From positions 1-42,450 of the forward strand of contig JAJYVQ010000003.1 of the NCBI GenBank assembly GCA_021791915.1: a stretch of 42,450 nt of DNA, given 5' to 3'. Positions 1 through 33,095 of the stretch are shown piece after piece; the stretch's first letter is position 1, and each line of letters opens with the position of its first letter. The stretch comes from Actinomycetes bacterium. GTDB lineage: Bacteria; Actinomycetota; Acidimicrobiia; Acidimicrobiales; JABEUL01. The notes below the pieces were generated by a model. That model searched no databases. It worked only from the letters and a program-made list of their open reading frames with translations, and had not been told where the DNA came from. The position numbers and the translations under genes were made by a program.

Positions 1-115
1 CTAAACAAATCTTCTCAACTATCAGATGAATTAAATAATTTAAAGAATTTAGGATATTTTGCTTTAAGTGCTATTTATCACGAACTTGGTTTGGATTTAC
101 TGTTTAGGAACAGAG
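1..115 (+). pseudogene. Fragment of a probable IS1634-family transposase, cut by the IS3 element
   Basis: Frame 1 reads LNKSSQLSDELNNLKNLGYFALSAIYHELGLDLLFRNR, resembling the KNxGYxxLxxIYxELGLD segment of IS1634-type transposases (recognised from memory, not searched). It ends at the IS3 inverted repeat and no continuation is recognisable after 1377. Confidence 0.5.
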
Positions 116-1323: not shown

Positions 1324-1401
1324 ATATATATTCTCCTATATTTACATTGAAGGTGTAAGCTTTTTGGTGTAGGTTCAAGTCCAACAGACATGTTATAACA
1401 A

Positions 1402-1551
1402 ATGATTAGACAATATAACTATCCCCTTTGTACAACTAGAAATCAAGTAGTTAAGGTAAATCACATGCTTGCAATCCTATTGCTTAGTAGGCAGTGTGTA
1501 CTGTCTAATGCAATACCTGTAGAAAGCATTGGATCAAATTGACCCAATACC
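1402..1551 (+). mobile_element. Internally deleted relic of the TIR-bounded TnpB element (tnpB 5' end joined to right TIR)
   Basis: 1402-1474 aligns ungapped to the tnpB start at 22966-23038 (60/73 nt, 16/24 aa). 1531-1551 ggatcaaattgacccaatacc matches the right end 24145-24165 at 20/21 nt. The micro-ORF 1402-1542 (46 aa) stops at the same TGA inside the TIR. Confidence 0.88.
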
Positions 1552-2270
1552 AAATTCTCTCCCAAAGTTTCGATAAGGTATTGGCAATTTTTGCTCATCC
1601 TGATGATGCCGAAATTGCTTGCGGAGGGACATTGGCATCTTTTGCAAAAAATGGTTCGGAAGTTCATTTAATTTATTTAACCAGTGGAGATAAAGGTAGT
1701 TTTGATTCGAGCTTGTTACCCGATACAGTGGCAAAAACTCGTTCTATTGAGTTTAAAAAAGCGGCGGTATGTCTAGGCATTAAGTCGGTTCAAACTTTTA
1801 ATATTCCGGACGGAGAGATTGCAGAAAGCAAAGAGTTGCGATTTAAAATAGTAGAATCTATCAGATCGATTAGACCGGAACTGGTAATATGTCCAGACCC
1901 CACCGCAGTGTTTTTTTCACAGAGTTACTATAATCACAGAGATCACCGAACAACTGGATTTGTAGTATTGGATTCTATTTCTCCAGAAGCTGCAATGCCG
2001 CTTTACCATAAAGGAGCTGGAGATCCTTTTCAAGTCCCTACGGTATTTCTAAGCGGGTCACTTGAGCCGGATTTGATTGTTGATATTTCCGACGGAATTG
2101 ATCAAAAGATTCAGGCAGTTTTAGCTTACGAATCAAGAATCAGTGACGAAAGTAACTACATTAGCGATGTTGTATTAGATATGGCAAAAAAAGACGGTGA
2201 ATTGGCAAAAGTAGATTTTGGTGAAAGTTTCAGAAAGATACTTTTTAACAGCGTCGAATATCGGCAGTGA
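1539..2270 (+). CDS. PIG-L/LmbE-family deacetylase; annotated TTG start lies inside the relic TIR
   Basis: AHPDDAE and HRDH metal-binding motifs; LTSGDKG motif. Confidence 0.88.
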   Translation: MTQYQILSQSFDKVLAIFAHPDDAEIACGGTLASFAKNGSEVHLIYLTSGDKGSFDSSLLPDTVAKTRSIEFKKAAVCLGIKSVQTFNIPDGEIAESKELRFKIVESIRSIRPELVICPDPTAVFFSQSYYNHRDHRTTGFVVLDSISPEAAMPLYHKGAGDPFQVPTVFLSGSLEPDLIVDISDGIDQKIQAVLAYESRISDESNYISDVVLDMAKKDGELAKVDFGESFRKILFNSVEYRQ

Positions 2271-3628: not shown

Positions 3629-3734
3629 AGGTCAATCTAAGTCTAAATCAGCTCGTTGTAACGGTATCAAATGTGAAATAATAGTTATCCAAACATCTCT
3701 CGGCCACCTAATCTAAAAAAGGTATTTTGTATCA

Positions 3735-3837
3735 TGTGCCTAATAGATTGTGCCTAATAGATTCTTACTTATAGATTATTACTTATAGATTATTACTTAT
3801 AGATTATTACTTATAGATTATTACTTATAGATTATTA
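3735..3837. repeat. 14-bp tandem array (2 x tgtgcctaatagat, then 5 x t[c/a]ttacttatagat)
   Basis: Read directly; intergenic between dinB and the DUF3040 gene. Confidence 0.97.
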
Positions 3838-4565: not shown

Positions 4566-4760
4566 GTCTTTTAAGATATTGGCGGTAAAATCGTTTACTA
4601 AAACGCTAATAACGTTGTTTAGTATAGCTTGATACCTTAAGCGAACGAGTTAACGTCGTTACTTTTTTAAAATCTTTAATTTTTTTAAAACCTATTATTA
4701 CCTTAAAAAGTCCTTAAGGATTTTTTAATTAAAAAATGTATCTCTTTAATAAATCGCACA

Positions 4761-4892
4761 GTATTGTAAACGATAAGTATTGTAAACGATAAGTATTGTA
4801 AACGATAAGTATTGTAAACGATAAGTATTGTAAACGATAAGTATTGTAAACGATAAGTATTGTAAACGATAAGTATTGTAAACGATAAGTAT
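4761..4892. repeat. Perfect 16-bp tandem array gtattgtaaacgataa x8
   Basis: Eight identical head-to-tail units with no spacers. Confidence 0.98.
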
Positions 4893-5035
4893 ATTGTATG
4901 TTGCTTATCTATTTCTTGCTGATTGATTGACCGTCTAAAAGAACATTAAGATTTGTCGCAACAAAAAATCCTAATTCAAATTAATTCTATAATTGTGTGG
5001 ATGGTTTATAAAATTTACTTTGAAAAGGCTTACGG

Positions 5036-11530: not shown

Positions 11531-11906
11531 CCTTGCTTTAAAATACGTAAATATCTGTGGTATGGCTAAAACTGTCAAAAAAAGTTGAATACACTTGATC
11601 AATCTATATTTTTCATGCAATTTGTTAATTGAGTTCGGATTATGTCGAAAGGTTTGATTTAGTTGGTAAACTACCTATCAAATAAGAGCTTACTGTAACG
11701 CTATAAATTATGGCAATGAAAGTTGAATTAATACTTGAGATGAGTTAAATAGAATACTCAGCATGCCAAACTGATGAACTAAATTTATATGTGAATCACC
11801 TGTTTTAATTTGGCAAAATTGGATGCTGATGCTAACTGTAATGAAGTTGATAAGTAATAGCTATGATATCAGTTAGGGATATTAATAAGTAGACTTGTTA
11901 ATTCAT

Positions 11907-12000
11907 AAAGGCTTTAAATTACAAAGGCTTTAAATTACAAAGGCTCTAAATTACAAAGGCTCTAAATTACAAAGGCTTTAAATTACTGAGGTCTTAAATT
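11907..12000. repeat. 16-bp tandem array aaaggct[t/c]taaattac x5 plus one degenerate unit
   Basis: Read directly; units 3-4 carry the C variant. Confidence 0.97.
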
Positions 12001-12306
12001 TGGCCAATATTTTGTCTCTGGTCGGTTTTACTCGGCGTTTATCTATGCTATATTACCAAAATCTACCAACGAAACATCTTTTGTATAAAACGCAGTTGAA
12101 AAGTGATATCTCCAGGATTACAGTAGTCATCATTAACCGAAAGCACAGTCAAAACGTGCTGACCAATTTCGACAGTAGTTTCAATCGTAAACCAATTAAT
12201 TTGTTGAATTAAAAGCGACTAATTAACTTTTATAAAAATAGGCTTACAACCTGCTATATCGTTGTTAGGATATATATATAAATATATTAAAGATTGTGTA
12301 CCCATA

Positions 12307-22852: not shown

Positions 22853-22965
22853 GGTAGCGGGTCAATTTGACAACAATCCCACCATCTGCGGTTGTAGCAC
22901 TTAAATTGTATAATAATAACAAGATATAAATGGTCCACTGCATAAATAGCCAACTAGAAGATACA

Positions 22966-24156
22966 ATGATAAGAACTTTTAAATATCCACTTTATCCAAC
23001 TAAAAACCAAGTAGTTAAGTTAAATCACCTGCTTGCAACTCAGTGCGAACTGTATAACGCTGTACTAGAAGAAAGAATAGGACTCTATAAATGGAATAAG
23101 AAATCAGTGTCTTATTTTGACCAATGTAAAACACTGTCTCAATTAAAAGAAGTTAGACCAGATATTACTCAATATGGTATAACTGTAAACAGAGGAACGC
23201 TACAAAGACTAGATAGAGCTTTTAAGTCTTTTTACAGAAGATGTAAAACAGGTCAAAAAGCAGGGTTTCCAAGGTTTAAGTCTTTAAGTAGATGGGATTC
23301 CGTTGAATACATGGATAAATCTGGATGGACGATAAAAGAACCTGAAAAAAGAATAAAACTGTTAGGTATTGGAGATATTAAAGTAAAATTCACCAGAAAA
23401 CTAAAAGGTCTACCTAAAAATATAGTCATAAAGAAGGTAAATGATAAAAAATGGTATATTTCTATAGTTTGTACAGATATTACCCCTGAGATATTACCTC
23501 AAACCAAGAACGAAGTAGGAATTGATTTAGGGGTAGTAAATCAGGTTACTTTAAGTAATGGAACCTTAATAGAGGGTCAGCGATTGCTACAGAAAAGCCA
23601 AGACAAGTTAACATATCACAGCCAAAAGTTAGCTAAATGCAAAAAAGGTTCAAATAGAAGAAAAAAGGTTAAACAAAACCTATCTACTGTTCATAGGAAA
23701 ATAACTAACCAGAGAAAAGATTTTAATCATAAAATAAGTAGAGAATTAATAAACAACTTTGATTTAATAGTTCACGAAGATTTAAATATTAAAAATATGT
23801 CTAAATCCAATAAAGGAACTGTAGACAATCCAGGAATTAATAGACAACAAAAGAAAGGTTTAAATAGATCAATATTAGATGCAGGCTGGAGTCAATTACT
23901 TCAATTCATGTACTATAAAGCGGAAGAAGCTGATAGAACAATTATTGCAGTAAATCCACAATATACATCACAAAAGTGTTCACAGTGTAAATATATTTCA
24001 AAACAGAACCGAACAACTCAAAACAAGTTTAAATGCATACAATGTGGATATTTAGAAAATGCTGATATAAATGCAGCTAACAATATTTTAGAGGCCGGTA
24101 GGGCCTTACAGGATAGAACAGATTTGTCTGTTTTAGAATGTGTAGGATCAAATTGA
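22966..24156 (+). CDS. tnpB: RNA-guided endonuclease TnpB (396 aa from the likely ATG at 22966)
   Basis: N-terminal RTFKYPLYPT HTH region, GFPRFKS, RuvC-I GIDLG, RuvC-II VHEDL, zinc ribbon CSQC/CIQC, RuvC-III ADINAA; catalytic D-E-D intact. Confidence 0.96.
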   Translation: MIRTFKYPLYPTKNQVVKLNHLLATQCELYNAVLEERIGLYKWNKKSVSYFDQCKTLSQLKEVRPDITQYGITVNRGTLQRLDRAFKSFYRRCKTGQKAGFPRFKSLSRWDSVEYMDKSGWTIKEPEKRIKLLGIGDIKVKFTRKLKGLPKNIVIKKVNDKKWYISIVCTDITPEILPQTKNEVGIDLGVVNQVTLSNGTLIEGQRLLQKSQDKLTYHSQKLAKCKKGSNRRKKVKQNLSTVHRKITNQRKDFNHKISRELINNFDLIVHEDLNIKNMSKSNKGTVDNPGINRQQKKGLNRSILDAGWSQLLQFMYYKAEEADRTIIAVNPQYTSQKCSQCKYISKQNRTTQNKFKCIQCGYLENADINAANNILEAGRALQDRTDLSVLECVGSN

Positions 24157-24165
24157 CCCACTACC
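24091..24165 (+). ncRNA. Putative compact omegaRNA scaffold overlapping the tnpB 3' end and right TIR
   Basis: Stem-loops gaggcc-GGTAG-ggcctt (24091-24107), tagaacaga-tttg-tctgtttta (24114-24135) and ggatca-aat-tgaccc (24145-24159); terminal CTACC (24161-24165) is complementary to the first loop. Position matches known TnpB omegaRNAs, but expression is not shown. Confidence 0.45.
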
Positions 24166-24605
24166 AAGAAAAACACTATATCTGATCCAGTAAAGTATGG
24201 ATTTGAATGAAAGCTAACAGTCAAAAATAGCGACAAAGATATCAATAAGCCTCCAACGGCGGCGATTCTTGAAAAAAGTCCGATTATAGTACCAATTCCT
24301 ACTGACAACTCAGCTAGTGCAATTATAAAACCGATAAGACCCGCATAAGAGTGAAGTGGAATGAGAAAAGAACCGATGGGAGAATGATGCGAATATGCTT
24401 TAAACTGTTGTTGAATTGAGATCGGACTGTTGGGATTAAAAAATGCTGGGTTGGCCAATTTTTGTAGTCCCGCAAATATGAAAGTAATCCCTAAAAAGAC
24501 CCTTAGCGGTAGAATTGAGTAATCAAAACGGTCATATCCTTGACGATTTTGTGATCGCTCTTTAGTATCTGACAATTTATAGATATCATAGTTAGAATCT
24601 GACAT
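24166..24605 (-). pseudogene. 5' part of interrupted DoxX/DoxD-family membrane protein gene
   Basis: PLRVFLGITFIFAGLQKLANP...ELSVGIGTIIGLFSRIAA...FHSNPYFTGSDIVFF. The listed ORF 24018-24605 reads on into the inserted element, so its C-terminus is artefactual. Confidence 0.9.
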
Positions 24606-26189: not shown

Positions 26190-27992
26190 TCAGACATTCA
26201 GTCTTTTTTCAAGTTCATTTAGTTGATTTTTAAGTTCTTTTGGAAGTCGGTTTGCAAACTTGGCGTAATGTTCTTTAATGAGTGGAATCTCTTGTTTCCA
26301 CTCTTCGACATCAACTTTAAGAAGCTCATCCATATCTTCATCAAGAACTGATAATCCGTCAAGAGATAGGTCTTGTTTGTCGGGAACATACCCTATGGGG
26401 GTTTCGATTGCGTCGACCTTACCGATAATACGATTAAATACCCACTCTAATACTCTTGAATTTTCACCATAGCCTGGCCACAGCCATTTTCCATTTTTAT
26501 CTTTTCTGAACCAGTTAACGTAAAAGATTTTAGGGAGTTTTTCGGTATCCGTCCTATCTTTCATAGAGAGCCAGTGTGAAAAGTAATCTGCCATGTTGTA
26601 GCCACAGAACGGTAACATTGCAAATGGGTCACGCCTTAAAACTCCAGATACACCTTTTGCTGCAGCTGTTGTTTCCGAAGACATAATAGAACCTAAAAAT
26701 ACACCGTGGTCCCATGATCTGGATTGATGAATTAGAGGTACAACCGAAGACCTTCGACCTCCGAATAAGATTGCTGCGATCGGTACACCGCTTGGATCTT
26801 CCCATTCTGGGGCTATCGCAGGGTCCTGTGCAGCTGAAACTGTAAATCGTGAGTTTGGATGTGCCCCAGGTGTTTTTGAAGATGGAGTCCAGTCATTTCC
26901 CTTCCAGTCAGTTAGATGTTCAGGAAGTTCTTCTGTCATGCCCTCCCACCAAACATCTCCGTCGTCCGTTAAAGCTGTATTGGTAAATATTGTGTTTTCT
27001 TTTACAGTAAGCATAGCGTTGGGATTTGTTTCAAAGTTGGTTCCTGGTGCAACTCCGAAGAACCCAGCTTCTGGATTAATTGCTCTTAATTCACCGTCGG
27101 GACCCAATTTCATCCAACAGATATCGTCTCCGATAGTCTCTACTTTCCAGTCTTTTAGAGTCGGCACAAGCATCGCTAGATTAGTTTTACCACAAGCAGA
27201 AGGAAAAGCACCAGTTATGTATTTAACTTCACCTTCAGGGGAGGTAAGTTTAAGGATAAGCATATGCTCTGCTAACCAGCCCTCGTCTCTAGCCATAACA
27301 GACGCAATTCTCAGCGCATAGCACTTTTTGCCCAATAAGGCGTTTCCACCGTATCCAGAACCGTATGACATAATTTCCCGAGTTTCAGGGAAATGAACTA
27401 TGTAGGTATTTTCTGGGTCACACGGCCATGGTACATCACTTTGTCCGTCTTCTAAAGGAGCTCCGACTGAATGCAGACAGGGAACAAAATCACCGTCAAC
27501 TCCGAGATAGTCCAAAACTTGTTGCCCCATTCTTGTCATTATCCTAAGAGATGCTGCCACATATGGAGAGTCTGTTATCTCTACACCTAATTGAGAAATT
27601 GGAGAACCAAGGGGACCCATGGAAAAAGGGACAACGTACATAGTTCTATTTTTCATAGAGCCACTATATAGGGAATTTAACGTTTGTCGCATATCATCAG
27701 GATCTCTCCAGTTGTTGGTAGGTCCCGCATCGATTTCATTTTTTGAACAGATAAATGTTCTTTCTTCTACTCTTGCCACATCGGAGGGGTCTGACCTTGC
27801 CAAATACGAATTCGGTCGTTTTGCTTCCGATAGTTTAACGAAAGTCTTGTTCTCAATTAAGAGCTGACAGAGCCTTTCATACTCCTCAGCTGACCCATCG
27901 CACCAAACTACCTCTTTCGGCTGCGTTAATTTGGTAATGTCGTTAACCCAGTCGAGTAGTTTTTCATTTTTAGTTGGAATCTCCGTTGACAT
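26190..27992 (-). CDS. pckG: Phosphoenolpyruvate carboxykinase (GTP)
   Basis: [72 protein letters not shown]. Confidence 0.97.
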
Positions 27993-32666: not shown

Positions 32667-33005
32667 ACTTTATTGATTGTAGTATGTCTCGATTAAATTT
32701 TAACATCAACAATGCAAATTTCATTGCTTAGCTGCAAAGATGTGTGGATCAGAAATTAAATGTTCACTTTTTGTGAACTTTATCATAAAAAATAAAAAAT
32801 TAGATTTATGCTCTGAAGGATAACGGAGTGCTAATAAGCGTAACGAGGGTTATTTCGAATTCATAGAAAATGGCTTAAGGGTGTAATCGTGCGACTGACT
32901 GTTTTGTGCGAGTTACATTTTGAATTTGAATTTGATTCCAATAGTAGTAAGGTTGCAATAAAGACTTCAATTCACGGCTTAGCTATATTTAAAACTGACA
33001 ACTCG

Positions 33006-33095
33006 ATTGCTGACAACTCTATAATTGGCAGTTCTATTGTCGACAGTTCTATTATCGACAGTTCTATTATCGACAGTTCTATTATCGACAGCAAC
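33006..33095. repeat. 15-bp tandem array, consensus attatcgacagttct, 6 units degenerating toward the 5' side
   Basis: Read directly. Confidence 0.93.

Follow-up and report, generated by a model that had tools for sequence, protein, structure and literature searches.

A probable immobile relic of a TnpB-carrying element with IS1-family ends at the start of a PIG-L gene

Overview

Positions 1378–1551 of the window (the whole 42,450-nucleotide stretch of DNA analysed, which is one whole contig of a 256-contig assembly) are very probably a relic, immobile and non-coding, of a TnpB-carrying non-autonomous element whose ends are of the IS1 family. Judged from its alignment with the intact reference member of the family in the same window (the full copy), the relic retains tnpB codons 1–39 and only 18–32 nt of the right end of the element, a combination that points to ordinary transposon decay rather than to a guide-RNA-bearing or mobile mini-element. 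The features of the locus, together with the related elements used for comparison, are listed in Table 1.

Table 1. Coordinates of the relic, its neighbours and related elements. Plain coordinates refer to the window.
Feature	Coordinates	Strand	Description
IS4/IS1634-like transposase gene fragment	1–115		100% identical to C33:29323–29437, where the gene is uninterrupted
IS3-family insertion sequence	116–1377	−	orfA 1015–1323, orfB 146–1018; Pfam HTH_Tnp_1 plus rve/HTH_21
End of the left-end (pre-ATG) region of the relic, 24 nt	1378–1401	+	Aligns with the ATG-proximal part of the full-copy left end
tnpB nt 1–73 (codons 1–24)	1402–1474	+	82% identical to the full copy; 16/24 residues identical
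Residual 46-codon open frame	1402–1542	+	TnpB residues 1–39 with a 5-residue insertion, plus SN*
Copy-specific 17-nt stretch TCCTATTGCTTAGTAGG	1475–1491	+	Replaces the parental 2 nt CT; net +15 nt, in frame
tnpB nt 76–117 (codons 26–39)	1492–1533	+	31/42 identical to 23041–23082
Right TIR TCAAATTGACCCAATACC	1534–1551	+	17/18 versus full copy 24148–24165
PIG-L/LmbE-family deacetylase gene	1539–2270	+	Pfam PIG-L, 6.4e-30
Target-site copy AAATTCTC abutting the right end	1552–1559	+	Corresponds to codons 3–5 (E-I-L) of the orthologous PIG-L gene
Intact reference member (full copy)	22853–24165	+	18-bp TIRs; perfect 8-bp TSD AAGAAAAA; single ORF 22966–24156, 396-aa TnpB
Autonomous elements	L093:150–2725; L111:4236–6381; L166:1098–3988		Perfect 8-bp TSDs in 2/3
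GC-rich structured MITEs, 89–97 bp	L139:4294–4382; L162:1255–1343; L159:10458–10554, 12203–12299		Exact 18-nt TIR; TSD 7/8 or 8/8
Tandem arrays, C74	G000:C74:27395–27425, 27500–27551		Both in the decayed left part of the relic
Tandem arrays, window	3726–3837; 4728–4919; 11883–12010; 32997–33086

Homology map and deletion junction

The initial annotation described a diverged, internally deleted copy of a TIR-bounded TnpB element, and the homology map bears this description out. Over 1401–1474 the relic is identical to the tnpB start of the full copy (22965–23038) at 61 of 74 positions, or 82% (blastn, repeat search), which agrees with the first 73 nt of tnpB recognised earlier at 1402–1474 with 82% nucleotide identity and 16 of 24 shared residues. 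The 20 of 21 nt claimed for the right TIR are likewise recovered, as 17 of 18 nt at 1534–1551 plus the preceding GGA. What has to be revised is the claim that only 73 nt of tnpB survive and are joined to the TIR by a separate segment of ~55 nt: positions 1492–1533 instead continue the tnpB 5′ coding sequence.

This assignment was supported by comparison of 1475–1533 with the whole interior of the full copy, in which the best local match was 23041–23082, lying directly after the 5′ match and equalled by 2 of 2,000 shuffles. With the junction zone excluded, 1475–1519 matches tnpB nt 74–200 (27 of 3,000 shuffles as good), and the same stretch shows no match to the last 130 nt before the TIR of the full copy (1,487 of 3,000 shuffles as good). 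A placement of 1475–1533 as the diverged last ~70 nt of tnpB (the NILEAG... region), which would make the hairpin within it the 3′ hairpin, was rejected by these two shuffle tests.

At the protein level, residues 1–44 of the relic align with TnpB residues 1–39 with 24 of 44 positions identical and one 5-residue gap (BLASTP, E=2e-12; tblastn agrees), and by this match as well as by blastn (82% over 74 nt) the peptide is homologous to a bona fide tnpB product. It has no Pfam match, and the TnpB domains (the OrfB_IS605 RuvC core and the Cas12f1-like TNB/zinc-finger) are missing from it.

The repeat search pairs 1520–1553 with 24134–24167 at 85%, and the deletion junction falls within 1520–1533, a stretch that fits the 5′ parental site at 11 of 14 positions and the 3′ parental site at 10 of 14. 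Both parental sites read TAGAA..(T/A)(A/T)GGA; since each carries this imperfect TAGAA..TAGGA repeat, the loss of ~1.06 kb is read as a deletion between imperfect direct repeats. A search of the window for the TIR pattern returned 1534–1551 (−), 22853–22870 (+) and 24148–24165 (−), with no occurrence in 100 shuffles. The right TIR of the relic is preserved at 17 of 18 positions compared with 74–82% elsewhere in the relic, a difference that is not significant (binomial estimate, p ~0.1).

Origin of the hairpin

The hairpin reported earlier at 1478–1515 is present, with a folding energy of −16.1 kcal/mol (z = −2.2) that 6 of 200 shuffles equalled. It was created by a copy-specific net insertion of 15 nt within the 5′ coding remnant: the 17 inserted nt together with CAGT make up the 5′ arm, native coding sequence makes up the 3′ arm, and the homologous part of the full copy forms no hairpin (−4.4 kcal/mol, z +0.65). 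In a multiple alignment, the copy on C167 shares CT with the full copy at the position where the relic carries TCCTATTGCTTAGTAGG. The insertion, at 1475–1491, is partly an imperfect inverted copy of 1500–1515, and this inverted-copy pattern suggests that it probably arose by a template-switch (quasi-palindrome) mutation.

Three differences distinguish the hairpin of a second strain (run X6): 1499 T>C falls in the loop, an A-U pair is lost through 1502 T>G, and 1511 C>T leaves G-U in place of a G-C pair. All three are non-synonymous in the residual 46-codon frame, and they give no sign of selection on the hairpin structure.

The element family

The TnpB of the full copy contains the OrfB_IS605, Cas12f1-like TNB and HTH_OrfB_IS605 domains (PF01385, PF07282 and PF12323). 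The family is in general decay in this genome, where one copy is intact, a second has lost 64 aa in frame, and at least seven others are 5′ or 3′ fragments, the breakpoints of which are all different. The copy with the in-frame deletion (G000:C6:27457–28558) is near-full and ~90% identical, with a TSD, AAGTTAAG, matching at 8 of 8 positions; it lost its 64 codons between two KKG-coding repeats, and the IVHEDL (RuvC-II) region went with them, the same habit as the deletion between direct repeats in the relic. A 299-bp two-ended mini-element with degenerate TIRs and an internal 12-nt tandem repeat, present in a single copy at C143:37426–37724 (G000), is flanked by the TSD CAATTAGT/CAATTATT (7/8).

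Outside this genome, an intact copy that is 68% identical, with a TSD of 7/8, was found in a related genus (G005:C98). A 544-bp composite derivative, also from a related genus (L040, G004:C108:11327–11870), has the TSD CAATATTG/CAGTATTG (7/8) and consists of two left TIRs (outer and inner, the inner one with the first 8 tnpB codons), the last ~170 nt of tnpB and a right TIR. Exact matches to the 18-mer GGTAGTGGGTCAATTTGA were found on at least 120 metagenome contigs. Three metagenome elements of 2.1–2.9 kb with the identical TIR each encode a single-ORF IS1-family transposase (PF03400; 27.4, 29.1 and 20.9 bits, modest against the cut-off of 24.1) plus cargo, which comprises a ClpP-like SDH protease, an NYN-domain protein and a methyltransferase with DUF5343.

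The occurrence of same-ended copies with 8-bp TSDs on C6 and C143, in G005 and G004, and in metagenomes upholds the initial view that the TIR belongs to the TnpB element family. The sharing of an identical TIR by IS1-transposase elements, tnpB-only elements and MITEs makes it likely that an IS1-family enzyme mobilises this TnpB clade.

Candidate guide-RNA scaffold

Where TnpB systems have been characterised, the 3′ part of tnpB, as far as the right end of the element, encodes the scaffold, and the guide lies just outside. Altae-Tran et al. (PNAS 2023, PMC10691335) extend this geometry to DDE-linked TnpBs. Consensus folding of the last 125 nt of the family (24041–24165; alignment A2, seven members) gave three hairpins and a long-range helix, which pairs the right TIR (UCAAAUUGACCCAC) with GUGGAUAUUUAGA ~105 nt upstream and encloses all three hairpins. 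The fold contains five pairs with double changes, shows no net covariation bonus and is a prediction only. The last ~120 nt of the family are a candidate omegaRNA scaffold on this model. In its terms, and by analogy with characterised TnpBs, the scaffold region is deleted in the relic and everything but the TIR strand of the predicted fold is missing; of the ~100 nt or more of structured sequence that an omegaRNA locus would have directly upstream of its right end, no more than 18–32 nt survive.

The initial proposal, in which the hairpin and end of the relic might act in trans as a derivative of omegaRNA-bearing or MITE-like kind, is not sustained. The hairpin lies in the 5′ coding remnant and owes its existence to the copy-specific insertion; a right end of at most 18–32 nt, the lack of a recognisable left TIR, the single copy, its absence from the relatives and the lack of a matching transposase in the assembly count further against it. 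In its first form, as an omegaRNA remnant that gives a guide (the PIG-L 5′ end, 3′ of 1551) to the TnpB of the intact copy, the proposal is extremely improbable. The right end, corresponding to the scaffold 3′ end of TnpB systems, is admittedly nearly intact and abuts the flank as it would abut a guide, but from so short a remnant the predicted three hairpins and the upstream helix strand are deleted, and the hairpin that the relic does have is neither homologous to the hairpins of the family nor conserved between strains. A search against Rfam at the gathering threshold gave no match in the window, and a guide directed at the neighbouring essential-operon DNA would target its own genome. Three metatranscriptome runs from the same study yielded no contig on 1300–3700, a result that is uninformative, as the organism reaches only ~8x in the DNA runs.

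True left flank and target site

The IS3-family insertion sequence, with inverted repeats at 118–140 and 1353–1375, sits 24 nt upstream of the relic ATG and is bordered by a 4-bp target duplication, AGTC (1378–1381). Its insertion is polymorphic, being present in runs X1–X3 and absent in X5 and X6. At its left terminus here the element reads TAAACCTACACC, an inversion of its own right-terminal sequence, in contrast to TGGACCTGCCCCC in every other copy. The start of the contig beyond it is probably an assembly chimera joined via the IS3 repeat, in which case 1–115 would not be the true left flank of the relic. This is because 1–115 match a gene on C33 and no public contig spans the junction 115/116: no Logan contig crosses it, and in 4 runs all contigs covering 1–115 continue as C33-type sequence.

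The IS3-free contigs from X6 and X5 join C74:27607 (...ATACAGTC) directly to window position 1382 (CAACAGAC...), and C74 itself ends in the IS3 left end (G000:C74:27608–27745), so that AGTC is the target duplication and nrdR, on C74, is the actual neighbour to the left. By these joins, the C74 (nrdR) and window contigs are adjacent in the genome. Three other contigs that end in the IS3 left terminus (C117, C152 and C10) were considered as the left-end partner and proved unrelated, C74 being the true one. In three congeners (G001–G003) nrdR is followed within 10–25 nt by the PIG-L gene and then by dinB, and the element site is empty; because nrdR lies directly before PIG-L in all three, the TnpB element is taken to have entered the junction in the lineage of this genome.

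On this true flank, no left TIR was found in the 800 nt upstream (C74), where the best match has mismatches at 7 of 18 positions. The left-end body is represented only by a collinear patch of 20/26, which is not significant alone (232 of 2,000 shuffles as good), and the remaining decayed left part is filled by tandem 13-nt and 15-nt repeats. The IS3-free strains show no indels relative to C74, and the loss of the left end is therefore old. The genome at large is rich in short intergenic tandem arrays with units of 13–16 nt.

The PIG-L start in G003 reads ATGATTGAAATTCTT and the right end of the relic abuts AAATTCTC, and therefore the insertion is placed in PIG-L codons 3–5. A partial GAAATTC at the nrdR stop (C74), without an adjoining TIR, has no better than an even chance of being a remnant of the left target copy. 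The partner predicted by the initial annotation, a left end preceded by AAATTCTC, was found nowhere in the assembly. One candidate, C133:15193 (AAATTCTC plus TIR with 5 mismatches), was dismissed as a chance match inside a CapD-like polysaccharide-synthesis gene.

The PIG-L gene start

At 1539–1583 the PIG-L gene has lost its native ATG through the insertion of the transposon. Downstream of an in-frame stop, the one canonical start left in frame is the TTG at 1539, inside the relic TIR, which gives 14 residues before LAIFAHPDD compared with 12–13 in the 7 orthologues examined. The TGA of the relic frame (1540–1542) overlaps this TTG (TTGA). As the only canonical start lies in the TIR and overlaps the TGA, the relic may furnish the PIG-L start, perhaps with its frame as a coupled leader. 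That the right end of the relic now supplies the PIG-L 5′ end and a TTG start is plausible from the sequence, and would be its only plausible present role, a passive one. A promoter and terminator scan of 1300–1700 found nothing.

A stronger version of this role would add function to the relic while remaining compatible with its being a relic. On this account the relic has been exapted: its TIR supplies the PIG-L start at TTG 1539, and the 46-codon TnpB remnant serves as a leader, translationally coupled to the gene, by which expression was restored once the insertion had destroyed the native start. The in-frame deletion and the preserved right end would then both be explained by selection for PIG-L/dinB expression. 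In favour are the position of TTG 1539 as the only canonical start, with an N-terminus of orthologue-like length, the right-end boundary at codon 3 of the orthologous gene, and the fact that both indels (the 1.06-kb deletion and the 15-nt insertion) keep the frame, with stop and start overlapping. Set against this, neither a promoter-like site nor a strong Shine-Dalgarno is present, the peptide sequence varies between strains (3 of 3 differences non-synonymous), a frame would survive two indels by chance in an estimated ~1/9 of cases, and the IS3 element is tolerated 24 nt upstream. We regard exaptation as unlikely. Against a plain relic stands the 46-codon frame itself, which has stayed open through two indels and may indicate some constraint, as does the better, though not significantly better, preservation of the right TIR.

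Copy number and mobility

The relic is present in a single copy in its genome, is absent at the DNA level from 60 relatives, and has a junction 23-mer that is absent from the metagenome contig collection; a related-locus search of genome contigs returned only relatives of 30–40% identity. No IS1-type transposase was found in the 93%-complete assembly (tblastn, PF03400 search) or in six other genomes of the taxonomic family. Among the 60 relatives, the TIR is linked to an IS1-like protein only in G050 and in a G041 fragment. The G050 locus (L071, G050:C144) has an IS1-like transposase between TIRs matching 15/18, and at the exact-TIR sites in G010, G029 and G041 the neighbouring ORFs tested included no transposase.

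A single TIR is all that remains, the relic lacks a nuclease and the predicted guide-RNA scaffold, and no cognate transposase was found in its genome; as a mobile element it is inert. That an IS1-type transposase could still move it in trans, as a MITE-like non-autonomous element, is rated highly improbable. The 89–97-bp MITEs and the 299-bp two-ended mini-element, with these TIRs and 8-bp TSDs, do exist, so the family does generate short derivatives. The relic, however, has only one TIR, its single copy has a junction that is unique across the genome, the 60 relatives and the metagenome contigs, no cognate transposase was found in the genome, and in this strain IS3 disrupts its left part further.

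History of the locus

The history of the relic is partly observed and partly inferred. An ancestral copy of ~1.3 kb would have inserted into the first PIG-L codons, immediately downstream of nrdR. An internal deletion of ~1.06 kb between the imperfect TAGAA..TAGGA repeats would then have removed codons 40–393 and, with them, the whole region that corresponds to the omegaRNA scaffold of TnpB systems. The hairpin would have arisen through the in-frame gain of 15 nt, for which the opposite strand of the adjacent downstream sequence was probably the template, as in a quasi-palindrome extension. The outer left end would have decayed past recognition, and the latest step would be the strain-specific insertion of IS3 24 nt upstream of the relic ATG.

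The relic in itself matters little, being a fossil. It independently confirms the 18-nt repeat as part of the TnpB element family, and it helps to order the events at the locus, from an insertion after the split from the congeners, through the deletion, to the strain-specific IS3 insertion.

Comparison with known systems

Among the closest known systems is the IS1 family, the single-ORF, cargo-carrying type of which (ISMhu11-like) has ends of the form GGnnnTG and 8-9-bp duplications (ISfinder/Siguier et al.). The family TIR, GGTAGTG..., fits GGnnnTG; 8-bp TSDs flank copies on C6 and in G005, the elements in C255, L093 and L111, and the MITEs; and a PF03400 DDE_Tnp_IS1 transposase is encoded by elements whose 18-nt TIR is identical. 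The relic differs from such elements in being one-ended and without a transposase.

The parent family also resembles the DDE-linked and solo TnpB elements described by Altae-Tran et al. (PNAS 2023, PMC10691335), for which the passages concerned report shared inverted ends and a tnpB 3′ end within a few bases of the transposon end. Like them, it is tnpB-only and has ITRs identical to those of transposase-containing elements. The DDE partner named in those passages of PMC10691335 is IS630 only, whereas the partner here is an IS1-family transposase, and the relic, unlike the elements described there, is only a degenerate fragment.

As a short, non-coding internal-deletion derivative of an insertion sequence, the relic is comparable to bacterial MITEs and to the PATEs derived from IS200/IS605, but these keep both ends and occur in multiple copies, whereas the relic has one end and is unique. 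Finally, the parent element, like the IS1341-type solo tnpB elements of the IS200/IS605 family, carries no gene other than tnpB. Asymmetric subterminal hairpins, with neither TIRs nor a TSD, are characteristic of IS200/IS605 elements; the family described here, in contrast, has 18-bp TIRs and 8-bp TSDs.
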